From IMG/VR virus record IMGVR_UViG_3300013314_000001, positions 1 to 64,000 of that record: a stretch of DNA of 64,000 nt; one strand, given 5' to 3'. Made by a program: the position numbers and the translations under genes. The notes beneath the pieces were generated by a model that saw nothing but the letters and a program-made list of their open reading frames with translations, was not told the origin of the DNA and did no database searches. This DNA is from a virus. The first letter of the stretch is position 1. Each line of letters begins with the position of its first letter. Below, piece by piece: positions 1,483 to 64,000 of the stretch.

Positions 1483-3108
1483 ATGAGTTTTTCTTTAAAT
1501 AAATCTTATGTAATTGCTGGTACTTCTGGGAATGTAATTACCCTAATAGGTGTAGGTACTTCTTGGCTTTCAACTAATCCCATTTTTACTTTAACTGGTG
1601 GAACTGGAAATATAATTACAGCACAAAATATTACCACCAATACAAGTGCTACTATTACTATTTCCGTTGGTTTTATAAGCTCTGAATTAACTATTACAGA
1701 TCCCTCTACTTCCAATACCCAAAGTTTGTATGTTGCTGTCAATGTTGCTTTAGCAGGAATAGCTTCAGCTAGTGAAGTTTATGCTGATGGCTATTCTGCA
1801 AATAAAGCAATAGACGACAACTTCAACACTTTTTGGAGTGGCACTACTGACACTAATAGGTCTACTTGGCAGGTTGATTTAAGAGCTAACGTTTTAGTTT
1901 TTGAAACTAGATTCTATTCTATCTCCAATACGTATGATGGCAGAATAAAAAACGCGGATGTTTATTGGAGTCAAAATTCAGATTTATCATCTCCTATTGT
2001 TTCACAAAACATAGGAGGAACGTTATTATCAGATAGTAATGGGAATTATGGAATTGTTTTTAATAATAGTGGAGTAAATGCTAGATATATTCAATTTAAA
2101 GTAGCATTAGGAGAAGCTGGAAGTATTGCTGAATGTCGGGTATATGCTTATCAACCACCTCCACCCCCAACAACATATAATTTATCTGCAAATGTTAGTA
2201 GCATTAGTATTGGGTCAGCTATAAATTTAACTTTATCGCTACCTAACAATACTAAGTTAGCTAGCGTTGTTACTTTTACTCTTTCCGATAATGGCAATGG
2301 CGGGACTTTTAGCAGCAATAATGTTCAGTTAACTCCATTAATTTCTTCAGCAACAGTAACTTACACTCCAAATAGCTCAGGAACCAAGGTAATTTCTTGT
2401 ATTAATAGTGGGGGATTAACAAATCCCTCATCGATTTTTATTACTGCCTTTGCTCCTTCTGTTACTTTAAATGTTGTGTTCGATGGTAATTCTTTGACTG
2501 CGGGGCTTGGCGGTTCTCGACCCTATTCTGTAAATTGTATTCAATCACTTGTCAATGCTCAATATAGTGTAATTTCATCCAACTTCAGTGTATCTGGGCA
2601 AACTACTACCCAAATGATTTCAGATGCAAATTCACAAATTGACGGAGCTTATGATTCCTCAAAAAATTATAATATTGTAGTTTGTTGGGAAGGGATAAAT
2701 GATTTATATTTTGGTGTAACAATTACCCAAGCTTATAATAATATTGTAAATTATTGCTTAGGAAGAAAAGCCAAGGGATTTAAGGTTGTAGTTGTTACTT
2801 TAACACCTCGCCAAAATGTGGGAACTCCAGCTAATCAAGAAGTAAATAGATTAGCTGTAAATGCTTTGATTTTACAAAACTGGAAAACTTTTGCAGATGC
2901 GTTGGCAGATATTGGTAATAATGTTCCTATGGGAGTATTTGAGACTTGTAATAACTCAATCTATTATGCTTCTACCGATTTAGTGCATTTTACAGATGTT
3001 GGATATAATATTTTAGCGGGTATTGTTACTAGTGCGATTTATTCAGCTATTAATAGCAATAGTGTATTAAAACAAAGTTTTAATAGATTTGATGTAGGTA
3101 AAAGCTAG
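1483..3108 (+). CDS. tail-associated protein with discoidin (F5/8 type C)-like domain and C-terminal SGNH/GDSL esterase domain
   Basis: NKAIDDNFNTFWSG...STWQVDL resembles the F5/8-type-C carbohydrate-binding fold. The C-terminus carries SGNH blocks FDGNSLTAG (block I), WEGINDL (block III GxND) and DLVHFTDVGY (block V DxxH). Confidence 0.7.
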   Translation: MSFSLNKSYVIAGTSGNVITLIGVGTSWLSTNPIFTLTGGTGNIITAQNITTNTSATITISVGFISSELTITDPSTSNTQSLYVAVNVALAGIASASEVYADGYSANKAIDDNFNTFWSGTTDTNRSTWQVDLRANVLVFETRFYSISNTYDGRIKNADVYWSQNSDLSSPIVSQNIGGTLLSDSNGNYGIVFNNSGVNARYIQFKVALGEAGSIAECRVYAYQPPPPPTTYNLSANVSSISIGSAINLTLSLPNNTKLASVVTFTLSDNGNGGTFSSNNVQLTPLISSATVTYTPNSSGTKVISCINSGGLTNPSSIFITAFAPSVTLNVVFDGNSLTAGLGGSRPYSVNCIQSLVNAQYSVISSNFSVSGQTTTQMISDANSQIDGAYDSSKNYNIVVCWEGINDLYFGVTITQAYNNIVNYCLGRKAKGFKVVVVTLTPRQNVGTPANQEVNRLAVNALILQNWKTFADALADIGNNVPMGVFETCNNSIYYASTDLVHFTDVGYNILAGIVTSAIYSAINSNSVLKQSFNRFDVGKS

Positions 3109-3164
3109 AGCATAATTTTTTAGCTGAATATTAGGAACTTTATTGGTACCTTCTCTGGTATAAT

Positions 3165-3482
3165 ATGGCTTTTCTAGATTCCTACAATTTATCAAACACC
3201 CCTGCATTTAAAGCTAGAGTAGAAGCCGCTATCGTAGCAGCTGCTATTGATATTAATGGAGAGGCAACAAGTGGGGATACTAATAAAGATACCAAACGTA
3301 AAACATTAGCACTTGCAATTATTAGCAAGACTAATGATTATGTAGCAATCTTTTCTCGCCTTGTAGCAGCTAATCCTACTATTAGTGCTACTTATGCAGC
3401 CACACCTGATCAATCATCTGTCAGTGATAGTAACATTGCTTTTGCAGTAGCTTCAGTATTTGACGATGCTGCTGGCGTGTAA
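3165..3482 (+). CDS. hypothetical protein
   Basis: 105-aa Ala-rich ORF, last gene of the fibre cluster. No motif recognised. Confidence 0.5.
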   Translation: MAFLDSYNLSNTPAFKARVEAAIVAAAIDINGEATSGDTNKDTKRKTLALAIISKTNDYVAIFSRLVAANPTISATYAATPDQSSVSDSNIAFAVASVFDDAAGV

Positions 3483-3805
3483 TACTTCCGACACTTTCGG
3501 TTTAGACTGGAAGTGTCACCGAAAGTATTGGAAACATGGACACAATAGACTCAGAACCAATTAGTATCAAAGATGCCATGCATCGCTACGGAATCAGCAG
3601 CCCTAGCACCTGGGCTGAATGGTTAGAAAAGGCTGGTATACAAAGCTTTAAGAAAGGAAGGGAGCGTTACATTTACACTTATCAGCTAGCCACCCTCGAT
3701 GCGATCGCTCGTGAACGTAACCGTCCCATAAATACTTCCACTCCCAAAAGTATCGAAAGTATCGTAACTGAATACTTCCAGGAACCGAAAGTATTGGAAG
3801 TGTCA
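3481..3805. repeat. cluster of short direct/inverted repeats (GGAAGTGTCA, CCGAAAGTATTGGAA, AATACTTCC)
   Basis: CCGAAAGTATTGGAA occurs at 3519-3533 and 3785-3799. GGAAGTGTCA occurs at 3509-3518 and 3796-3805. AATACTTCC (reverse complement of GGAAGTATT) occurs at 3481, 3731 and 3771. CGAAAGTAT is tandem at 3746-3764. Confidence 0.75.
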
Positions 3806-4048
3806 GACCTTGTAGCGATTATGACATCAATGCTCGGTGTTATGCAGTTTCATTCAGTGCCACCAGTTGACCCAGATGAGAGTTACAAAAGACTTGAACA
3901 GTATGCTGCATACAACTGGCGCATCAAATCAAAAGACCTTGCAGCATTGCTTGAACTAAAAAGTGTTCCAAAATCCCCTTACATGGCTAAAGGGTTTTGG
4001 TTCGAGCGACAGGGGCGTGAATGGAAAGTTTCAAAATTCAAGGAATAA
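3536..4048 (+). CDS. hypothetical protein, possible DNA-binding (HTH-like N-terminus)
   Basis: 170 aa. The N-terminal ISIKDAMHRYGISSPSTWAEWLEKAGI looks like a MerR/excisionase-type HTH. Its leader and coding sequence carry the repeat cluster 3481..3805. Confidence 0.4.
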   Translation: MDTIDSEPISIKDAMHRYGISSPSTWAEWLEKAGIQSFKKGRERYIYTYQLATLDAIARERNRPINTSTPKSIESIVTEYFQEPKVLEVSDLVAIMTSMLGVMQFHSVPPVDPDESYKRLEQYAAYNWRIKSKDLAALLELKSVPKSPYMAKGFWFERQGREWKVSKFKE

Positions 4049-4064
4049 TCAGCTGGCCATATAG

Positions 4065-5024
4065 GTGGTCAACATGGTTACTCAACAAGATTTAGATTTT
4101 ATTCTAGATTGTCAAGTCAAAGAGATTTATAACATTCTCGTTACAAGTTATTCTCTCTGCATTGATATTTATTCCCAAACTTTAATAATTAACGTGAGCA
4201 AATCTGTTTCTATACAAGAGCTTGAAGCACTTGAGAAAGAAATAGGAGTTGCTGCATATCTTAAACTGGGTTGCAAGAAAGTTTCTTTCTATTGTTGTCA
4301 AAATTGGTTATACGACTACAATTCAAATATAGTCGATGAATTAAATAACATGACAACAGCCACATTAACAAATCAAGTTGAAGACGAGTCTGAGTTTCAA
4401 CAACCTTTTCAACAACCACAAACAGACATAGCAGTTGACTGGATAAGCTTTGGTGGGATTGCCCAAAGCCTGGGATGTTCAACGGAAACTGTAAGTAATG
4501 AAGTTCAAGAATATAAAATCTTTGTAACGCTGCACCAAAATAATCTGGGACTATCGGGAGAAAACCTAGAGATATTCCTTAACCGTCGCCATACCGAAAT
4601 GGTGGAGAAGTTTCGGGCTTTACTTACCCGTAATGTTTCTACACCAGCAGCCCAACCATCTCGCGCTGCTGCTAAATTAAAAGCGGTTCCTGATAATAAA
4701 ACTAATGGCTTTGTGCCTACAGCAGAAGGGGGACTAACTTTGCCAGAAGACTTTGATATGATGGATGGGCGTAAGCGTCGCCCTGATATTATCACAGCTT
4801 TAAAGATTGCAATCGCTGCACTGCCTGATGGAGAAACTGAAGATATCAAAAAGATGTATGTGCGCCAAATAGCCATGCGCGAGAATGTAGAAAACTTTGT
4901 GGGAGCGTTAGCATCACAGTTTCAAGGGTCAGCGAAGTTTAAGAGTGTGGCTCAAACTTCCAAGGAGATTTATACAGCAGCCCGTCAACTTTGGGATGAG
5001 TATTTAGACTCTGCTCCAGCGTGA
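4065..5024 (+). CDS. hypothetical protein
   Basis: 319-aa ORF (alternative ATG at 4074), followed by a strong terminator. No motif recognised. Confidence 0.5.
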   Translation: MVNMVTQQDLDFILDCQVKEIYNILVTSYSLCIDIYSQTLIINVSKSVSIQELEALEKEIGVAAYLKLGCKKVSFYCCQNWLYDYNSNIVDELNNMTTATLTNQVEDESEFQQPFQQPQTDIAVDWISFGGIAQSLGCSTETVSNEVQEYKIFVTLHQNNLGLSGENLEIFLNRRHTEMVEKFRALLTRNVSTPAAQPSRAAAKLKAVPDNKTNGFVPTAEGGLTLPEDFDMMDGRKRRPDIITALKIAIAALPDGETEDIKKMYVRQIAMRENVENFVGALASQFQGSAKFKSVAQTSKEIYTAARQLWDEYLDSAPA

Positions 5025-17834: not shown

Positions 17835-17848
17835 TCGTTATATGCTGA
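17835..17848. promoter_or_regulatory. operator-like site O2 (inverted copy)
   Basis: TCGTTATATGCTG is the exact reverse complement of the O1 core, 41 nt away. Confidence 0.6.
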
Positions 17849-17850
17849 AG

Positions 17851-17967
17851 AAAGGCAGAGGGCAGAGGGCAGAGGGCAGAAGGGAAGAGGTTATATAAGA
17901 CCTTAAGACTTCTGACACTATATTAAATCCATCCTTCTGCCTTCTGCCTTCTGCCCTCTGCCTTTCC
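17851..17967 (-). mobile_element. miniature hairpin element: inverted heptamer arrays (GGCAGAG/GGCAGAA)n without an ORF
   Basis: The left arm 17851-17890 and right arm 17933-17967 are reverse complements. The 42-nt loop contains GACACTATAT, matching (in reverse complement) ATATAGTGT next to the left arm of cassette 42966..43439. Confidence 0.65.
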
Positions 17968-17971
17968 TACT

Positions 17972-51479: not shown

Positions 51480-52043
51480 GTGCGTAAACAAAGACCTACT
51501 CTTGTCGATGAATTCAGGCAAGGGTTATCAGAAGAATTAGATAGCGAACTATTACGAATAGCTGAACTACCTAACGTTGCAGTTCCAGAGATTTATAACT
51601 GGCTAATTGTTAATCACTTCAAAGGTAGTCTCAGCGCTACTTATACTTGGTTTAACAACCATAAAAAAACAGGAGCGATTGCTGAGAAGTTCAACCTACT
51701 CCTGAAAGATTACGATGGTGTAGCCACAGAAAGGGTGCTACAAAAGCTACTCGTAATTTTAACAGAACAGATTGATGTAGCTATTACTAATATTGGGAAT
51801 GCTGAAGAACCAATTAGTGCAACCGAATATTTAAGGGCATTGCCTAACCTTGGCCGCGAGATTCGTTCTGTTATCCAGGCTTGTAACTCCCTTCAAGCGG
51901 TGCGCGATCGCAGAAGTTTGGAAGTAGCGGGAGCCTACAGATTATCCCAAGAATTATTAGTCACCTTTAAAGATTCCCCATTTGCTGATGCGCTTGATGA
52001 AGCGGTGCGTTCAGCCATGATTCTGATTGAAGATGAGGGGTAA
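51480..52043 (+). CDS. terS: putative terminase small subunit
   Basis: 187 aa with a GTG start, immediately upstream of and abutting TerL. Has an N-terminal HTH-like segment. The call is positional. Confidence 0.45.
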   Translation: MRKQRPTLVDEFRQGLSEELDSELLRIAELPNVAVPEIYNWLIVNHFKGSLSATYTWFNNHKKTGAIAEKFNLLLKDYDGVATERVLQKLLVILTEQIDVAITNIGNAEEPISATEYLRALPNLGREIRSVIQACNSLQAVRDRRSLEVAGAYRLSQELLVTFKDSPFADALDEAVRSAMILIEDEG

Positions 52044-53549
52044 GTGGGGAGAGCCAGCCGCAGTAGAAGAGATGCCCATCGGACTAAGGCTAGAGAGTTA
52101 GCACGGGCAGCAGGGATTAATAAACCTTCTGCTGAATCTCTTAGGGCGCGGCATGATTTTAGCTTTTTCTGTTACTGGATTACAAGAAATTCTTCTGAAC
52201 CAGCAACACCAGCAGAACACCATAAAGAATGGCATAAACACTGGGTTACTGAGCAAGATAGTAAATACTTGCTTCGTATTGCAGGGGACAATGTAGATTT
52301 GCTGGCACCACGAGGTTCAGGAAAATCTACATCGCTGGGTTTATTTGTGGCATGGGCGATTGGCTACCATACCATGCACAAAAAATTATTGCAGATATTG
52401 TACATATCCTACTCATTATCTGCGGCTCGCGGTAAATCAAAAACCATCAGAAGCATTATCGAATCTCCCGAATATGCTGAGATATTTCCGATGGTTGCGC
52501 CTGGACTTGAATGGTCAAACGATAACTGGAGCATAGACTTTAAACTTGCTGGCATTAAATCAACTGGTGCTGAAAGATTCACGATGATATGCGCTGGTGC
52601 AGCAGGAAGTATTACGTCAAAACGTGCGATGCTAATTATCCTGGATGATATTATCAAAAGCGCTGAACAAATAGCCAATCCAAGTGTTAGAGAAAAGATT
52701 GAGCGTAACTTTGTTAGTGTTATCCGTCCAACACTATTAGAAGGCGGAAGGATAATAGGACTAGGCACAAGGTTCAGACCAGATGATATTCACGTTACTA
52801 GATTTAATTCTAAAAAAGGCTGGATACAAATAGAACAGCAAGCAATCCTTGTTGATGAGTATGGAATTGAGCGTTCATACTGGGAAAGTTTCTGGTCATT
52901 AGCATATTTAAAACAGTTACAAAAAGATGATCCTTTATCTTTCAGCTACCAATTTCAAAACAAAATTGTACCACTTGATGAGATGGGTTTACATCCATCT
53001 TGGATACACTTTGAAGATATTCCAGAATCATTTGATTGCTACGCTGTGGGGATTGACTTAGCATCATCACTAAAACAAAAAGCCGATTTCACAGTTATGA
53101 CTTTAATCGGCAAGCTTAATGATAAATATTATGTGCTTGACTATCGGCGTGGTAAATGGAATGGGAACTTAGAAAAGTGTCAGCAGTTAGTTGAGCTATA
53201 CGAAGAATGGATAGAGCCAGGTATACCATTCACTGTGTTCTGCGAAGATACAAGTTACCAAAGTTCATTCCAAGGTGACTTCACAAACTATGTTGTTAAT
53301 GACTTAAAAATTTATGATATGCAGTGCAGGGGAGCAAGAATGAAAGGAGACAAATTAGCTCACTTGTTAAGTATCTCAGGCATCTTTGCCAATGGTGCAG
53401 TTGCCTACAATAGATTCAGATTTCATATAGAAGATGACATGATAAAAGAGCTTACACAATTTGGTGCAATGCCTCACGATGATGCGCTTGATAGCCTTGT
53501 ACTTGCTTTACAAGGATTAGGCTCTAGACGAAAGTTGCTTGCAGTGTGA
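52044..53549 (+). CDS. terL: terminase large subunit
   Basis: Walker A LLAPRGSGKST, Walker B MLIILDD, and nuclease-domain acidic motifs VGIDLA and PHDDALDSL. Confidence 0.9.
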   Translation: MGRASRSRRDAHRTKARELARAAGINKPSAESLRARHDFSFFCYWITRNSSEPATPAEHHKEWHKHWVTEQDSKYLLRIAGDNVDLLAPRGSGKSTSLGLFVAWAIGYHTMHKKLLQILYISYSLSAARGKSKTIRSIIESPEYAEIFPMVAPGLEWSNDNWSIDFKLAGIKSTGAERFTMICAGAAGSITSKRAMLIILDDIIKSAEQIANPSVREKIERNFVSVIRPTLLEGGRIIGLGTRFRPDDIHVTRFNSKKGWIQIEQQAILVDEYGIERSYWESFWSLAYLKQLQKDDPLSFSYQFQNKIVPLDEMGLHPSWIHFEDIPESFDCYAVGIDLASSLKQKADFTVMTLIGKLNDKYYVLDYRRGKWNGNLEKCQQLVELYEEWIEPGIPFTVFCEDTSYQSSFQGDFTNYVVNDLKIYDMQCRGARMKGDKLAHLLSISGIFANGAVAYNRFRFHIEDDMIKELTQFGAMPHDDALDSLVLALQGLGSRRKLLAV

Positions 53550-58670: not shown

Positions 58671-60791
58671 ATGGCTCATGGCATCCTCGACCAAATAATT
58701 GAATCAATACTTGACCCTACGAGTAAGGGGATGTCAGGCAATACACTAATTGTTGCAAATCATTTGCAGCAAATGAAATTATTCTCACTAAGAGGCGGGG
58801 TTGAAATTCTTCCTACACAAGACGATGATTATGATTCGAGGAAGAAGTTCATTGACAACATCTGGAAACAAAATCAGCTTGACCTTTACTTAGATAAAAT
58901 CTGGGACTTCACATTACTCAAAGGTCAAATTCTTTTATACCTCAGACCAACTAAAGATGGAACATATAAAATATATTTCTATCCCAAAGACAGCTTCCGT
59001 GCCTACTATAACAGCGACGGTGATTTGGCTGAGGTGGTCATCCGATACAACTTTAAAGTACGTGGACAATTTGACAACGCTCAGAACTTGCACTGGATTA
59101 AACTCAGAATCACCTCAGAAACAGTAGAGCAAACCGAGACTGACCAGCAGCCTAGTTTTGATGGCGAGTATCTAACTAGCATGAATGCAAAAACCTATAC
59201 CAACACACTCAAGTTTATACCTTGTGTAGTAGTTAGAAATGCACCAACTGGACCAGGTGAAGATGGGGTGTGCGAGTTTGAACATTTGCGATCGCAGATT
59301 GAGACCCATGACAAATTGATGGGTGCTATCAATGCAAACTTAGCATTCTTTGGTAATCCCTCACTGGTAACTACTCGTTCTCCAACAGAGATTATGGAGG
59401 CGATAGAGGATGACACACCAGCACTTAATAAAAGTCGTACTCTTTCAAGCGCTGGCGGCTGGTATGGGGATACTACAAATAGCAGTCGCAAACAAGACCC
59501 CTTTGCTTATCGTGCAGGACAAGAAGGCATTAGGGTTAAGCGTGTAGTCGGTAACGTGTCGAATGATGAGCGATTTGGTTACATTGCACCTGACCCTATA
59601 TCACCTGACCATACCCAACACGTTAGGGAAATGCGAGAAGCAATTCACTTTGCACTAGGGGGAATTGATGAACGGGGGATGACGGCAACCGCTACAGCTT
59701 ACGAGATGAAAAGTATCTACGGTCGAGTTGCTGCAACTGCTATTAAAAAGTGCAGGGCTATTTACGATCATGGACTATGTAAGTTATTTGAAATGGCGTT
59801 AGCTGCTGAAGAAGATTTATTCAAGCAATCTCTAGCAGTTGCACTTAAGAAAACTCCTGAAGAAATGACAGAGGGTTTTATTCAAGACTTAACAAACAAA
59901 GGAAAGATTCCACCTAATGTATTTGGACTACCACCAATAGGTAATCGTCAAATCAAATGGCGTTGGACTGGGCCAGTGTTTGAACCCAGCCCAACAGACA
60001 TGAGAGATAAGACAATTGCAGCTCGTAACTATCAAGAACTTGGTGTGCGATCGCTCGAAAGTCTCAAGACTATTTTTGATAATAAAACTGATAAAGAATT
60101 AGAAGGAATGCTAAAAGGTGGATATCCTTTTAGATACATGAGTAGCGTTGGTAATACGACTTCTCAGTTCTTAGGATTATATCAACAAATGCTTAACTTA
60201 CCTAATGGACAAGGACAGTCATTAGCCCAAACAGTACAGATGCCTCCACTAATTAGTAGAAGTATTGATACCCTTTATAAGGAACTAAACTATGACCCAA
60301 GATTCGACGCAGTACAACCAGGGGACATCCCCGACTATCGAGTCGGCGCAAGCTCCTACAGTAATTTCCTTTCCCCAGGTGGCGGCGCAATACCAGGGGC
60401 AGCAGGTAGCACAACCCCAGCAGGGACAAGTAGTACAATTCCCGGTATATCAAACGCCCCAAGTCCTCTCGCAGCCTCCGGTATCCTCCCCTTCCCAGTC
60501 CAAACCTTCGGAGGACAACCCATGGAAACAGGCGTTCGAGTCGGTAACATCCTTCCTGAGTACGCCGCTGACCTCCCCATATCAGGGTCAACAGTCACAA
60601 TCCCAAACACGCCAATTGCCGGGGGCTTACAACCCAACCAATCCATACTCAGCAGCCAATTACCGCCAGGGTCAGCAATCCCCCCAGACCTCGCAGTCGG
60701 CGCAGAACAACCAGGCTCAATCTGGAGTCAGCTATTCCCCACAGTCGCAGCAGCAACAAGTAAGCTACGCAAACATACCTCAAAGAAGTAG
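58671..60791 (+). CDS. portal protein (putative) with P/G/S-rich C-terminal extension
   Basis: 706-aa ORF in the canonical position between terminase and the scaffold/capsid genes. No exact motif recognised. The last ~165 codons overlap ORF 60292..61242. Confidence 0.55.
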   Translation: MAHGILDQIIESILDPTSKGMSGNTLIVANHLQQMKLFSLRGGVEILPTQDDDYDSRKKFIDNIWKQNQLDLYLDKIWDFTLLKGQILLYLRPTKDGTYKIYFYPKDSFRAYYNSDGDLAEVVIRYNFKVRGQFDNAQNLHWIKLRITSETVEQTETDQQPSFDGEYLTSMNAKTYTNTLKFIPCVVVRNAPTGPGEDGVCEFEHLRSQIETHDKLMGAINANLAFFGNPSLVTTRSPTEIMEAIEDDTPALNKSRTLSSAGGWYGDTTNSSRKQDPFAYRAGQEGIRVKRVVGNVSNDERFGYIAPDPISPDHTQHVREMREAIHFALGGIDERGMTATATAYEMKSIYGRVAATAIKKCRAIYDHGLCKLFEMALAAEEDLFKQSLAVALKKTPEEMTEGFIQDLTNKGKIPPNVFGLPPIGNRQIKWRWTGPVFEPSPTDMRDKTIAARNYQELGVRSLESLKTIFDNKTDKELEGMLKGGYPFRYMSSVGNTTSQFLGLYQQMLNLPNGQGQSLAQTVQMPPLISRSIDTLYKELNYDPRFDAVQPGDIPDYRVGASSYSNFLSPGGGAIPGAAGSTTPAGTSSTIPGISNAPSPLAASGILPFPVQTFGGQPMETGVRVGNILPEYAADLPISGSTVTIPNTPIAGGLQPNQSILSSQLPPGSAIPPDLAVGAEQPGSIWSQLFPTVAAATSKLRKHTSKK

Positions 60792-61242
60792 TACAGCATT
60801 TGCTAGTACAGAAGAACTAATCGGTCAACTTGGCCCACGGGCTGCTGAGATTTTAAACGAGTCTCATTGTAAAACTGAAGACCAGTTACAGTTAGTTACT
60901 CAACAAGCGCAGATATTACATCGTTTTGCATTAGAGTCTGTACAGACAATGCAACAGCTTGCACCGCACATTGAGCGTTACGCTCGGATGGAAAGTTTGT
61001 TAACTGACCCAGATAGATTAGCTGCTTACACAGTTGACTATTTTACTTATATTAAACCACTTCCTGAAAGACCTAATGCAGCCGCTTCTCTAGTACGCCC
61101 CGACTTTCCTTCTATGCCTACTAATTCTGGAGGCAACGGACAAATGCGATTAGCTAATGTGCGGCCTGACCAGCGATGGATGGTTGCTGACAGGATGGAA
61201 GCACAAGGGCTGATGAATGGTAAAACTATTATTGTGCAGTAA
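60292..61242 (+). CDS. Q/P-rich protein with helical C-terminal domain, scaffold-like
   Basis: 316 aa. An AGGA box lies 8 nt upstream of the ATG. Its Q-rich composition matches other proteins of this phage. Positioned between portal and capsid genes. Confidence 0.45.
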   Translation: MTQDSTQYNQGTSPTIESAQAPTVISFPQVAAQYQGQQVAQPQQGQVVQFPVYQTPQVLSQPPVSSPSQSKPSEDNPWKQAFESVTSFLSTPLTSPYQGQQSQSQTRQLPGAYNPTNPYSAANYRQGQQSPQTSQSAQNNQAQSGVSYSPQSQQQQVSYANIPQRSSTAFASTEELIGQLGPRAAEILNESHCKTEDQLQLVTQQAQILHRFALESVQTMQQLAPHIERYARMESLLTDPDRLAAYTVDYFTYIKPLPERPNAAASLVRPDFPSMPTNSGGNGQMRLANVRPDQRWMVADRMEAQGLMNGKTIIVQ

Positions 61243-61421
61243 TGGATAATAAATCTCGTCTAAGTTTATCAATTGATTATCTCAATCAAATTGATAAAGA
61301 GCTTAACCAAGAACAAAAAGAAAATGGTTCTCGTGAAGTTGCTATCGCTATAACTCATTTACAAACAGCCATTCTTTGGCTTCAGAAATCTGAGTTTATT
61401 GTAAGTGAGGTTGTGAAGTAA
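61242..61421 (+). CDS. small protein, not in ORF track
   Basis: 59 aa, MDNKSRLSLSIDYLNQIDKELNQEQKENGSREVAIAITHLQTAILWLQKSEFIVSEVVK. TAATG coupling at both ends. Confidence 0.4.
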   Translation: MDNKSRLSLSIDYLNQIDKELNQEQKENGSREVAIAITHLQTAILWLQKSEFIVSEVVK

Positions 61422-61939
61422 TGACCCCACAAGAATATTTAAGAATGCAGCAGATAGACCAAATGCAAGCTGCACAAGAAGCTGCACGACGACAACCCCA
61501 ACCTAATAGATTAGTTCAAGCTTTACCCTATGCTGCTGCTGCAATTCCTGTAGCTGCTGGTTTATATGGTGCTAATGCTTTAGCCTCTGATGGTAATGAA
61601 ACTTGGCAGCGCACTGCTGAGAACACCGCAGGTAACTTAGCTGGTGGTTTAGCTGGTGCTTACGCTGGTTCTAGGTTTGGTCTTCCTGGCGCTGTAGTTG
61701 GTGGGATAGCTGGTGCTTTGGGCGGTGGTTATGTGAGCGATCGCATTGCTGACCAGTTCGACCCAAACGACGGACAAGCAATGAGTTTACTTGATGCACA
61801 CTTACAAGCTCAACCGGGAAATCCCTATGAGCAAGAGGCACAGCTGCGTCAACAGATACAACAAGTGCAAATGGCTCAACGTCAGCAACAAGCCGCAATG
61901 AGACAACAAGCGATGCAACAGTATCAAGGACAGCAGTAA
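61421..61939 (+). CDS. glycine-zipper / Q-rich protein
   Basis: GGLAGAYAGSRFGLPGAVVGGIAGALGGGYV, and a C-terminal QQIQQVQMAQRQQQAAMRQQAMQQYQGQQ. Confidence 0.5.
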   Translation: MTPQEYLRMQQIDQMQAAQEAARRQPQPNRLVQALPYAAAAIPVAAGLYGANALASDGNETWQRTAENTAGNLAGGLAGAYAGSRFGLPGAVVGGIAGALGGGYVSDRIADQFDPNDGQAMSLLDAHLQAQPGNPYEQEAQLRQQIQQVQMAQRQQQAAMRQQAMQQYQGQQ

Positions 61940-62082
61940 TGGAACTTTTAATTAAGCAACAAACCGATTTACTTTTAGCACTTCAGCTAATAAGACCATC
62001 TCATTGTGAAGAAGCTGAACAGTTAGCTAATGCTATTCATACAGCTTACGGAATTTTAATCAGATTGAAAACTGCTAATTAA
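61939..62082 (+). CDS. small protein, not in ORF track
   Basis: 47 aa, MELLIKQQTDLLLALQLIRPSHCEEAEQLANAIHTAYGILIRLKTAN. TAATG coupling with the upstream gene. Confidence 0.3.
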   Translation: MELLIKQQTDLLLALQLIRPSHCEEAEQLANAIHTAYGILIRLKTAN

Positions 62083-62091
62083 TAATAAATT

Positions 62092-62121
62092 CCCCCTAGA
62101 TTAACCACAGGTACTAGGGGG
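62092..62121 (+). promoter_or_regulatory. hairpin enclosing the capsid-gene Shine-Dalgarno sequence
   Basis: CCCCCTAG(62092-62099)/CTAGGGGG(62114-62121). The 3' arm is the SD, 2 nt before ATG 62124. Confidence 0.5.
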
Positions 62122-62123
62122 AA

Positions 62124-62315
62124 ATGTCAAACCAATCATGTCTGCCTTTAACATTCCTTATAAGAGGTAGACAATTGTTTATTGATCCAGATTTTCCAAT
62201 CTTACTTGGACAAGAACTTTACCGTCCTGATGCCAAGTACATTCTCAAGTATGTTACCCGCCCTCGTGTTAAACATGAGTTCTTTAAGGGACCGGGTGAC
62301 AACGTTCAACTCGAT
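62124..62315 (+). CDS. major capsid protein, exon 1
   Basis: 64 codons ending ...GPGDNVQLD. The TAA that closes the ORF is the first triplet of a group I intron. The last exon bases ACTCGAT pair with GTCGAGT (62323-62329) to form P1 with a terminal U.G. Confidence 0.65.
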
Positions 62316-62687
62316 TAAATTTGGTCGAGTATAAACGGGATGAATTGCTGGAACCCCACGTAACCAAAGGGCAATCAGCAGCCAAGCTTAACCAGGAATG
62401 GTTTTGAAGGTTCAGAGACTAACAGCCGAGTCTAGAACAGACAGTAATGTTGACACGAGCCTCCCGGTACTAAAGTTAAAGGAAGAAGGAGAGAATCGAA
62501 CTCCCTGCATCAGGGTATTGAATATTTGGCTTCACCCCTATGTCTAGCCAATTACAGCCTTACAGATTCGGCATCAATCACTAACCATTACTGATTGCTT
62601 CTTCCACGCTTAGTATATGATATAGTCCCAGCCTTCAGCGATCGCAAAGCTGGAGTTACAGGATAAAGAGCCTGTATATAAGGAATG
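62316..62687 (+). ncRNA. group I self-splicing intron (no internal ORF)
   Basis: The core elements occur in canonical order: P AATTGCTGGAA (62343-62353), Q AATCAGCAGCC (62373-62383), R GGTTCAGAGACTAACA (62409-62424) and S GATATAGTCC (62619-62628). P4 pairs TTGCTG/CAGCAG and P7 pairs GACTA/TAGTC. P9-like hairpins lie at 62628-62653 and 62658-62675. The 3' boundary (G62687 or G62702) is inferred. Confidence 0.7.
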
Positions 62688-63698
62688 CGTTACAAATTTT
62701 GGGGTACCGGCGATGACGGTTACACCAAAGCATCACGAGAACGGTCTGATACTCAGACCATCGGCGTAAGCAGTTCTCGACGGATTGAGAAAGATAAAAT
62801 CATTCTGACGCTTAAGGAATATACGGGTCCAGCCGACGAGAATGATCCAAATTCTCCTTCCACTTTCCAAATTCCCCTGCGTGTAATCTTAACTGCTCAA
62901 CGCGCACTCTGGGAGTATGGCCAAAAAGCGTTTCATGATTCTATTGGAAGTTCAAATTTATTACAAGACTTCCGCCGTTGGGAAGATAGACTTTATTGCA
63001 ATGAGTTATTAAAGACTAGCTTCACCTATAACCCACGGGGTTTTGCTGATGGTGCAACTGTTAATCTAACTGCTGCTGATACTAATTTTAAAGGACAGCC
63101 ACCTAAGTTTAACGTTGATGACTTAGAGCAAGTAGTTGCGGATATGACGACTAGGAATTGCCCTTCGTTCGAGGACGGCAATTACGTTTGTGTTTGCGAC
63201 CCATACTTCCTCAAAGACCTTCGCGCTGATAGCAAGTTCTTAGAAGTAAGTCGTTACCCGACGATGGTTCCCATTGGCGCGATGACTCCCGGTGCTGGTA
63301 GTATGTCACCTCCGCAAGTACCCTTTAACTCACCTTGGGCACAAGGGTTAATGGCTGGACAAGCCGTTGATGTGCAGGGTCAAACAATGATGCCTTCGGG
63401 CTTTTGCTTCGATGGTGTGCGGTTCTTCGTAAGCACTAATCTACCTAAAGCACAAGTCACAGTCAACTATACTAATCCAGTAAGCGCGGTCGCTGGCAGT
63501 GCTACTCGCGTTGGTAACTTAGGCATCTTCTTTGGTGCTGAAGCGATTGGCGTTGGTCTGGGTGGGGCTGGGCCAGAAATACTTCTCAACAACAATGACG
63601 ATTTTCAGAGGTTCGTGATTGCTATTTGGAGACTCTACGGAAGTTGGGAACTCCTTGATGAACGGTTCGTCTCGGTTTGTAGGTCTTATACAACCTAG
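62688..63698 (+). CDS. major capsid protein, exon 2 (HK97-fold-like)
   Basis: 336 codons. Placed last in the portal-scaffold-capsid order and followed by a strong terminator. The in-frame junction ...GDNVQLD|RYKFWGTGDD is predicted. An in-frame TAA at 62679-62681 blocks any earlier junction. Confidence 0.65.
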   Translation, partial: RYKFWGTGDDGYTKASRERSDTQTIGVSSSRRIEKDKIILTLKEYTGPADENDPNSPSTFQIPLRVILTAQRALWEYGQKAFHDSIGSSNLLQDFRRWEDRLYCNELLKTSFTYNPRGFADGATVNLTAADTNFKGQPPKFNVDDLEQVVADMTTRNCPSFEDGNYVCVCDPYFLKDLRADSKFLEVSRYPTMVPIGAMTPGAGSMSPPQVPFNSPWAQGLMAGQAVDVQGQTMMPSGFCFDGVRFFVSTNLPKAQVTVNYTNPVSAVAGSATRVGNLGIFFGAEAIGVGLGGAGPEILLNNNDDFQRFVIAIWRLYGSWELLDERFVSVCRSYTT

Positions 63699-63783: not shown

Positions 63784-63812
63784 AAAGCCCGGTGAGTTAG
63801 ACCGGGCTTTTA
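63784..63812 (+). terminator. rho-independent terminator after the capsid gene
   Basis: AAAGCCCGGT(63784-63793)/ACCGGGCTTT(63801-63810) plus a T-run. Confidence 0.85.
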
Positions 63813-63834: not shown

Positions 63835-64000
63835 ATGCTAGTTGATCAAGAAACTCTGCGACGCTTTTGGTCTAAGGTAGATGTCAAAGGTGAAGATGAC
63901 TGTTGGCTATGGACTGCTGCAACTTCTACAGTCGGTAAATCTGTAATGGGTAAGTGGTCGCCACCCCGATACACAGACTTAAGCTTTCAAGCAGTAAGAG
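63835..64000 (+). CDS. HNH homing-type endonuclease, 5' part (truncated by window end)
   Basis: MLVDQETLRRFWSKVDVKGEDDCWLWTAATST... parallels the N-terminus of ORF 37668..38174 (LTPDVLERFWSKVEKADGCWLWKAGTTT). Confidence 0.6.
   Translation, partial: MLVDQETLRRFWSKVDVKGEDDCWLWTAATSTVGKSVMGKWSPPRYTDLSFQAVR

Follow-up and report, generated by a model that had tools for sequence, protein, structure and literature searches.

A predicted group I intron interrupting the major capsid gene of a putative cyanophage

Introns in phage capsid genes are already known from an experimentally verified precedent. In the Cluster J mycobacteriophage LittleE, an intron of 819 bp interrupts the gene of the major capsid subunit and carries a LAGLIDADG open reading frame (ORF) on its bottom strand; its type was not certain to its authors, and its splicing was shown by reverse-transcription polymerase chain reaction and N-terminal protein sequencing (Pope et al. 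2013, PMC3706429). Here we describe a similar interruption in positions 1 to 64,000 of the IMG/VR virus record IMGVR_UViG_3300013314_000001, a stretch of 64,000 nucleotides (nt) that we analyzed as a whole and refer to as the window. With a probability of about 0.93, a 372-nt sequence in its major capsid protein gene is a group I intron with U62315 and G62687 at its splice sites. As in LittleE, exon 1 ends with U, the intron ends with G, and related phages carry an uninterrupted gene. The two cases differ in that the group I type is firm by computation in the window, where splicing is predicted from sequence, and the capsid families are unrelated in sequence.

According to Landthaler & Shub (1999), as cited in PMC6669764, three group I introns are found in orf142 of Staphylococcus phage Twort. 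Similarly, relatives of the window gene (loci L010, L014, L223 and L224) have two to four group I introns per capsid gene, whereas the window gene has a single one and the multi-intron state is seen only in these metagenomic relatives. The cyanophage psbA introns of the S-PM2 type, as mentioned in PMC8557907, are likewise group I introns in a protein-coding gene of a cyanophage. However, in T4-like cyanomyoviruses psbA serves as an auxiliary photosynthesis gene, while the gene considered here is an essential structural gene of a phage related to S-EIVl. Our literature search, whose coverage was incomplete, found no work on introns in cyanophage capsid genes.

In a blastn search of a phage collection, the core of the window intron (62333–62459) was 76–80% identical to other phage sequences. 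These include annotated introns of crAss-like phages (about 78%) and stretches inside the split DNA-polymerase genes of Bacillus phages (about 80%); a search with the capsid exons found nothing in the collection. Among the crAss-like phages, the Carjivirus communis dUTPase gene KP06_gp34 is annotated as "contains intron insertion" and the intron encodes the HNH protein gp35. The crAss-like introns and the DNA-polymerase interruptions of Bacillus thuringiensis phages (Hakuna, OmnioDeoPrimus and others) share the P, Q and R elements with the window intron, and all of them lie in protein-coding phage genes. In contrast to these introns of nucleotide-metabolism or replication genes, the one in the window interrupts a capsid gene, lacks an endonuclease gene, has an expanded P8 and belongs to another phage lineage and host phylum.

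The interrupted capsid gene

A sequence-only reading of the window had proposed that the 372-nt gap between a 64-codon ORF and the capsid ORF is a group I intron. The upstream ORF does end at U62315, directly followed by TAA, and the gene is laid out as follows.

62124–62315, plus strand: mechanical ORF of 64 codons, starting with ATG at 62124 and closed by TAA at 62316–62318
62162–62167, plus strand: Shine-Dalgarno-like AAGAGG, 7 nt 5' of the probable TTG start at 62175, read from the sequence
62175–62315, plus strand: probable exon 1, 47 codons with a TTG start, MFIDPDFP...GDNVQLD
62316–62687, plus strand: predicted group I intron, 372 nt, without an ORF (Rfam RF00028, same-site orthologue, uninterrupted homologues)
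62685–63698, plus strand: mechanical ORF of 337 amino acids, whose ATG at 62685–62687 belongs to the intron
62687, plus strand: terminal guanosine (omega G), the last intron base
U62315/C62688: predicted junction, CAACTCGAT then CGTTACAAA, with the junction-spanning peptide GPGDNVQLDRYK
62688–63698, plus strand: exon 2, RYKFWG... to TAG at 63696–63698 (ORF list, homologue alignment, PHROG and HK97-fold matches)

Splicing after G62687 keeps the frame (CGT TAC AAA comes next), and intron-less homologues read VQLDRYKFWG across the junction exactly as had been predicted. In a large protein collection the spliced protein has 688 relatives. The closest of them, P0001 (383 amino acids, 91% identical; GDVVQLDRYKFWGTGD), is uninterrupted and reads ...GPGDVVQLDRYKFWGTGD... 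across the junction. Among phage genomes, tblastn with the spliced protein found one uninterrupted ORF of 383 codons, in Synechococcus phage S-EIVl (45% identity); the match covers residues 17–398 of the 400-residue query and reads ...GQTVQLDRYKFWGNPG... over the same region. The flanking residues D47 and R48 do not vary in two alignments, of 19 and 56 sequences. Among 112 related loci from IMG/VR, metagenomes and GTDB genomes the site is uninterrupted in 100, the nearest relatives reading VQLD/RYKFWG as in the predicted spliced product; the intron-less target sequence of locus L004 is GTGCAGCTCGACCGATATAAA. All six intron-bearing alleles have GAT as the D47 codon, which fits the need for U at position -1, compared with 53 GAT and 47 GAC in the uninterrupted ones. 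An alternative in-frame 3' splice site after G62702 was rejected, as it would delete RYKFW, a segment conserved in all homologues.

The view of the upstream ORF as an exon is supported at its end and probably wrong at its start. The homologues P0001–P0005 and that of S-EIVl begin at the position of TTG 62175 (MFIDPDF...), and L003 and L004 have an in-frame stop just upstream of the equivalent start. For these reasons exon 1 most likely comprises 47 codons, starting at TTG 62175 instead of ATG 62124 and giving a predicted spliced product of 383 amino acids. The open frame from TTG 62175 back to ATG 62124 is not conserved, and its 17 extra codons are probably untranslated. L004 has AGAGG at the place equivalent to the AAGAGG of the window. 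The ATG at 62685–62687 is shared by L003 only, the other four same-site introns ending with ...AAGTAG, ...CAGTTG (twice) and ...GCACTG, and is therefore regarded as incidental. Among the outcomes that the sequence-only reading had named as speaking against an intron are capsid homologues starting at a Met equivalent to 62685 together with independent homologues of the upstream ORF. Neither was found: exon 1 is the capsid N-terminus, and the intron reading stands.

The product of the split gene is supported as an HK97-fold major capsid protein by profile, model and position, in agreement with the identity first assigned to it. It matches PHROG 1357 "major head protein" (E 1.3e-15), while a Pfam search gave no match. 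An AlphaFold2 model was made for P0001 with the 56-sequence alignment (mean predicted local distance difference test, pLDDT, 78; predicted template modelling score, pTM, 0.75). In a Foldseek comparison with the PDB, its top-scoring matches are capsid proteins solved by cryo-electron microscopy (cryo-EM), with probability 1.00; they include cyanophage P-SCSP1u 8i4l (E 6e-12), Pan3 9vye and A4 9jwb (E 6e-12 to 1e-10 for the three) and many others. The gene also lies downstream of those for the large terminase subunit (52044–53546) and a portal-like virion protein (58671–60788).

Gene callers split the window gene into an ORF of 47–64 amino acids and a truncated one of 337. The same error occurs in public collections, where P0006, P0014 and P0017–P0031 appear as truncated proteins, and phylogenies, marker-gene surveys and structure predictions from these capsid proteins should use the spliced sequence. 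In the S-EIVl record (L001, GenBank KJ410740) the 383-codon capsid ORF at 3004–4155, which is 60859–62010 of the record, lacks an annotation of its own; its 5' part is covered by AHV82227, a 'hypothetical protein' on the minus strand, and its 3' part by AHV82228, a short plus-strand coding sequence.

Ribozyme fold and rival readings

The Rfam family Intron_gpI (RF00028) has a curated gathering score of 50 bits. A default scan of the window at gathering scores reported nothing, because the intron scores 2.4 bits less. In E-value mode the full model (1–253) matches 62271–62655 at 47.6 bits, with E 5.7e-11 in a region of 701 nt and E 5.2e-9 in the 64-kb window (both strands, all 4227 families), so the covariance-model check suggested earlier came out in favor of a group I intron. 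The intron region has no significant match to another Rfam family. The shortfall coincides with long insertions in the model alignment between P7 and P3' and in P8, the latter being the largest. All elements named in the sequence-only reading were located: P, Q, R and S in this order, the pairings of P4 (TTGCTGG/TCAGCAG) and P7 (GACTA/TAGTC, extended to G[A]GACUA/UAGUCC), and the P1 helix ACTCGAT/GTCGAGT, with U.G at the splice site and TAA as the first intron triplet. The proposed structure consists of these parts.

62309–62330, plus strand: P1 hairpin, exon strand ACUCGAU (62309–62315), loop L1 UAAAUUUG (62316–62323), guide GUCGAGU (62324–62330)
62336–62342, plus strand: P3 5' strand CGGGAUG, partner CCUCCCG at 62460–62466
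62343–62353, plus strand: P element, AATTGCTGGAA
62345–62381, plus strand: P4 (62345–51/62375–81) around P5 (62355–57/62369–71), holding P and Q
62373–62383, plus strand: Q element, AATCAGCAGCC
62382–62410, plus strand: P6, CC (62382–83)/GG (62409–10), and P6a (62390–62403) with a GGAA tetraloop
62409–62424, plus strand: R element, GGTTCAGAGACTAACA
62415–62421, plus strand: P7 5' strand G[A]GACUA in R, partner UAGUCC in S at 62623–62628
62421–62459, plus strand: P7.1-type hairpin between P7 and P3', outer stem AACA/UGUU, inner GUCU-AGAAC-AGAC, then a CACGAG junction
62467–62616, plus strand: expanded P8, outer stem GUACUAA/UUAGUAU (62467–73/62610–16), from alignment to L003 and a minimum-free-energy fold
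62481–62488/62598–62605, plus strand: P8 inner stem, GGAAGAAG/CUUCUUCC
62619–62628, plus strand: S element, GATATAGTCC
62633–62655, plus strand: P9 hairpin CUUCAGC/GCUGGAG, from fold and covariation
62658–62675, plus strand: P9.1 hairpin ACAGG-AUAAAGAG-CCUGU with a conserved loop

Comparative analysis strongly favors this structure. From eight relatives without the window, RNAalifold predicts P1, P3, P4, P5, P6/P6a, P7.1, P8, P9 and P9.1, and 37 of 52 pairs show a compensatory double change. A hand-drawn structure including the P7 pseudoknot was evaluated on an alignment of six same-site introns, among them that of the window. It has 92.7% of its cells paired, compared with 80.0% in shuffles and 28–42% when the 3' partner is slid by 1–3 columns, and 23 double-changed pairs compared with a shuffle mean of 11.4 (none of 500 shuffles reached 23). 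The unconstrained minimum-free-energy fold of the window sequence yields P1, P3, P4, P5, P6a, the long P8, P9 and P9.1.

Covariation extends to the individual helices. P3, recovered by RNAalifold without the window, has double changes in five of seven pairs across same-site introns (CGGGAUG/CCUCCCG in the window, CCCUGUG/UGCAGGG in L045, CUCCGUG/CGCGGAG in L010, UUGGGUG/CGCCCAA in L224). In P4 of the L007 intron five of six pairs are changed on both sides with pairing kept, and the relatives have GNRA loops and covarying stems at P6/P6a. P7 would form a pseudoknot with P3, and the G-C pair beside its bulged A62416 is the predicted guanosine-binding site; three of its pairs covary (G[A]GACUA/UAGUCC, A[C]GACUA/UAGUCU, G[A]GCAUA/UAUGCC). 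In the P7.1 helix four of five pairs covary (RNAalifold columns 193–197/236–240), its inner stem being UACU/AGUA in L003 and GUCC/GGAC in L010A, and the CACGAG junction on its 3' side is conserved. An extra helix P7.1/P7.2 between P7 and P3' is the hallmark of subgroup IA, the usual phage type, and by its P7.1 hairpin the window intron is classed as IA-type. In P9 the differences between the window and L003 are compensated; a copy of the cyanobacterial HIP1 octamer GCGATCGC at 62638–62645 spans the last two stem bases and the loop, and a copy occupies the equivalent place in L003. In P9.1 four of six pairs covary, and its loop motif GGATAAARAGCC is common to the crAss-like dUTPase intron (L002) and the other capsid-gene introns.

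The splice sites follow the same pattern. In the 13 introns delimited in the capsid family all 5' exons end with U and all introns with G. In the window the wobble U62315.G62324 marks the 5' splice site, and an automatic search found a guide G opposite the exon-final U in 12 of the 13 introns; the guide of L010A (GCCG) was assigned by eye because the automatic match there was spurious. One P1 pair changes from C-G to G-C in L223 and L224 (ACUGGAU/GUCCAGU), where the Leu codon is CTG.

The expected peripheral insertion sits in P8. The interval between R and S, described earlier as unusually long, is 194 nt compared with 56 nt in the L003 orthologue, whose P8 is CACC-GCAA-GGUG; about 138 nt (62474–62609) are absent there, and the window intron is in effect the L003 intron with this sequence added inside P8. 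A second copy of the insertion was found neither in the window nor among 224 loci, IMG/VR contains no exact 22-mer of it, and matches in the phage database do not extend beyond the intron core. ARAGORN detected no tRNA or tmRNA in the insertion, Rfam gave no tRNA match at E <= 10, and it contains neither an ORF nor an endonuclease remnant detectable by blastx. On its minus strand, 62489–62505 (GGGAGTTCGATTCTCTC) reads like a tRNA T-arm, and this motif is flanked by an 8-bp acceptor-like stem (GGAAGAAG/CTTCTTCC).

Taken as a working intron, the sequence would act as follows. The capsid gene would be transcribed as one pre-mRNA, in which the 372 nt between the exons take up a group I ribozyme fold. 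In P1 the last seven exon bases would pair with the internal guide, placing U62315 opposite G62324, and the core would be formed by P3–P8 and P4–P6 with the P3/P7 pseudoknot, P7 providing the guanosine-binding site. An external guanosine bound there would attack after U62315, and the freed 3'-OH of exon 1 would then attack after the terminal G62687, joining ...GAT/CGT... into the mRNA for a 383-residue HK97-fold capsid protein (MFIDPDF...NVQLD-RYKFWG...). Unspliced RNA would give only a 47-residue peptide, as the intron opens with TAA, and capsid synthesis would therefore depend on splicing. As the most abundant virion protein would need an RNA-catalyzed step, splicing efficiency could limit burst size.

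Several observations weigh against the window sequence being a group I intron that splices in this way. Its Rfam score stays below the gathering score, its P3 has one U-C mismatch and the base of its P6a two U.U mismatches, P8 has received a large insertion, and P2 is absent. P10 is weak, with 2 bp next to the splice site (C-G and G.U), whereas 5–6 bp are possible in L010, L223 and L224. The z-score of the window fold is modest (-1.87), and splicing itself is deduced from sequence. The mismatches, the P8 expansion relative to the compact L003 intron and the short P10 could point to a genuine group I intron that needs a phage or host protein cofactor or splices inefficiently. Many natural group I introns need protein helpers. 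This refinement is improbable, though less so than the other alternatives: the capsid is essential and needed in large amounts, which implies strong selection for efficient splicing, the junction and core sequences are intact, and the P9 changes relative to L003 are compensated.

Far less likely, the locus could hold two independent genes without splicing, the capsid being translated from ATG 62685 and the spacer being a dead intron relic or an unrelated structure. Gene callers see it in this way, as P0006 has 338 amino acids from MRYKFWG with a 47-residue ORF upstream in L003, and the 3' splice site coincides with an ATG that has AAGGA in front of it. However, no spacer separates this AAGGA from the ATG, which is missing from four of the five other same-site introns. 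D47 and R48 are invariant, and every uninterrupted homologue has the 47 upstream residues as its conserved N-terminus. A complete covarying ribozyme core is also unlike a relic. An interruption of another kind, such as a group II intron, an intein, translational bypassing or an insertion or assembly artefact, would account for the broken ORF as such but is excluded by the data. An intein is ruled out, since the interruption opens with a stop codon and no frame runs through it, and the gap is far beyond known cases of bypassing; RF00028 is the one Rfam family with a significant match, and the same element is present at the same site in five independent assemblies. A group I intron is thus preferred, as the sequence-only reading had it, on the grounds of the covariance-model match, the same-site orthologue, the covarying helices and the uninterrupted homologues; we infer that it is catalytically active and spliced in vivo.

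Introns in related capsid genes

Five other assemblies carry an intron at the exact D47/R48 codon boundary.

L003, 2771–3003: 233 nt, on a JGI (Joint Genome Institute) contig, 61.6 bits in Rfam
L010 intron B: 1066 nt, with an ORF of the 263–280-residue class
L045: 1070 nt, with an ORF of the 263–280-residue class
L223 intron 1: 553 nt, on a contig binned in a Leptolyngbya metagenome-assembled genome (MAG)
L224 intron 1: 278 nt, on a contig binned in a Nostocaceae MAG

The L003 intron, which scores above the gathering score, has a core nearly identical to that of the window. A search for a 30-nt intron pattern found no match in metagenome contigs and among viral contigs only L045 and the contig of L010; a collection scan with the 14-mer GGTCGAGTATAAAC gave 109 loci, of which only two were not chance matches. 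L010-B and L045 have homologous ORFs of 263–280 amino acids in the P7.1 loop, of which that of L010 matches Pfam LAGLIDADG_2 (E 7e-11), and L223-1 has a shorter, degenerate-looking ORF at this place. No endonuclease ORF is present in L003, L224-1 or the window intron; the latter has no ORF of at least 50 amino acids avoiding the core helices in the ORF list, and a blastx comparison with all endonuclease ORFs of the capsid family revealed no remnant. Since same-site relatives carry endonuclease genes, we infer that the window intron derives from a mobile one, which arrived by homing and has since lost its ORF. Homing endonuclease genes usually pass through a cycle of gain, degeneration and loss.

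Beyond this site, introns of the same subclass occur at nine positions of the 383-codon capsid gene, based on Rfam matches above the gathering score and boundaries checked by hand. The sites are given in window numbering.

After F36: L219 (2608–2855)
After G41: L010-A, L014-1
After D47: the window, L003, L010-B, L045, L223-1, L224-1
After G53: L223-2
After Y92: L223-3
After G134: L224-2
After P219: last intron of L224, cut by the contig end
After P283: L014-2; proteins P0017, P0021, P0029 and P0030 are truncated there
After R362: L007 (4112–4376), L124; protein P0010
Intron-bearing regions of relatives: L010, 1586–3000; L014, 1776–4901; L223, 915–2922 and about 4690; L224, 290–2645

By this distribution the capsid gene of the window's clade is an intron hotspot. 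The other introns of the family score 53–74 bits in Rfam. Two contigs carry at least three introns per gene: L223 has three confirmed ones, with a fourth copy of the L9.1 motif suggesting a fourth intron, and L224 at least three within 2.6 kb. Mini-exons of 18 nt (GATACTATCCAACTCGAT and CGATACTCCTATTGGGGT) separate adjacent introns in L010 and L223, and introns of L014 carry LAGLIDADG_3 ORFs in reverse orientation. Introns are found mainly in the sub-clade closest to the window; the loci from metagenomes and GTDB genomes, mostly S-EIVl-like and about 45–50% identical to the window protein, are nearly all uninterrupted. It is conceivable, if rather doubtful, that one lineage moved repeatedly within the gene by reverse splicing or LAGLIDADG retargeting and that ORF-less copies protect against the endonucleases of co-infecting relatives. 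Such intragenic transposition is proposed tentatively because the core identities between introns at different sites (0.74–0.96) overlap the value for the crAss-like outgroup (0.82). The relatives provide a compact natural data set on the gain of intron and endonuclease sites, ORF loss and coexistence, comprising one gene, nine sites, endonuclease genes that are forward-strand, reverse-strand, degenerate or missing, and two 18-nt mini-exons.

Host and neighbouring sequence

No deposited phage genome closely matches the window. The window contains 35 copies of the cyanobacterial HIP1 octamer compared with 0.22 expected from shuffles, and its host is for this reason very probably a cyanobacterium. 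Phages of its capsid clade appear to infect filamentous cyanobacteria.

The surroundings of the capsid gene show further features. Downstream, a G+C-rich hairpin GCCCGGT...ACCGGGC (63784–63810) is probably an intrinsic terminator; TTTT follows on the plus strand, and the hairpin scan lists it on the minus strand. Right after it, an ORF cut by the window end (63835–64000, plus strand, 55 codons visible) matches HNH endonuclease families (PHROG 3593, E 7e-7), and L003 and L004 have a free-standing HNH_3 gene at the equivalent place on the opposite strand. Just upstream of the gene start, a hairpin without a T-run lies at 62092–62121 (CCCCCTAG ... CTAGGGGG), with similar hairpins of changed stem (CCCCCTGG/CCAGGGGG in L004) just 5' of the gene in L003 (about 2545–2575) and L004 (about 2909–2945). 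It may serve in mRNA processing or stability, or mark where the upstream transcript ends. Between the portal and capsid genes lies an ORF of 316 amino acids rich in Q, S and P (60292–61242, plus strand), which shares, in another frame, the last 500 nt of the portal-like gene (58671–60791, plus strand). The actual start probably lies further downstream, and the position of the ORF suggests a scaffold-like protein.

Two observations lie further away. The ORF at 51480–52040, just upstream of the terminase ORF and in the same frame, is a candidate for a second interruption but has no PHROG match. At 17847–17969 there is a near-perfect inverted repeat of about 120 nt, made up of tandem heptamers in both arms, (GGCAGAG)n on one side and (CTCTGCC/CTTCTGC)n on the other. 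The repeat gives spurious Rfam matches to plant microRNA precursors on both strands and resembles the short tandem heptamer repeats of filamentous cyanobacteria.

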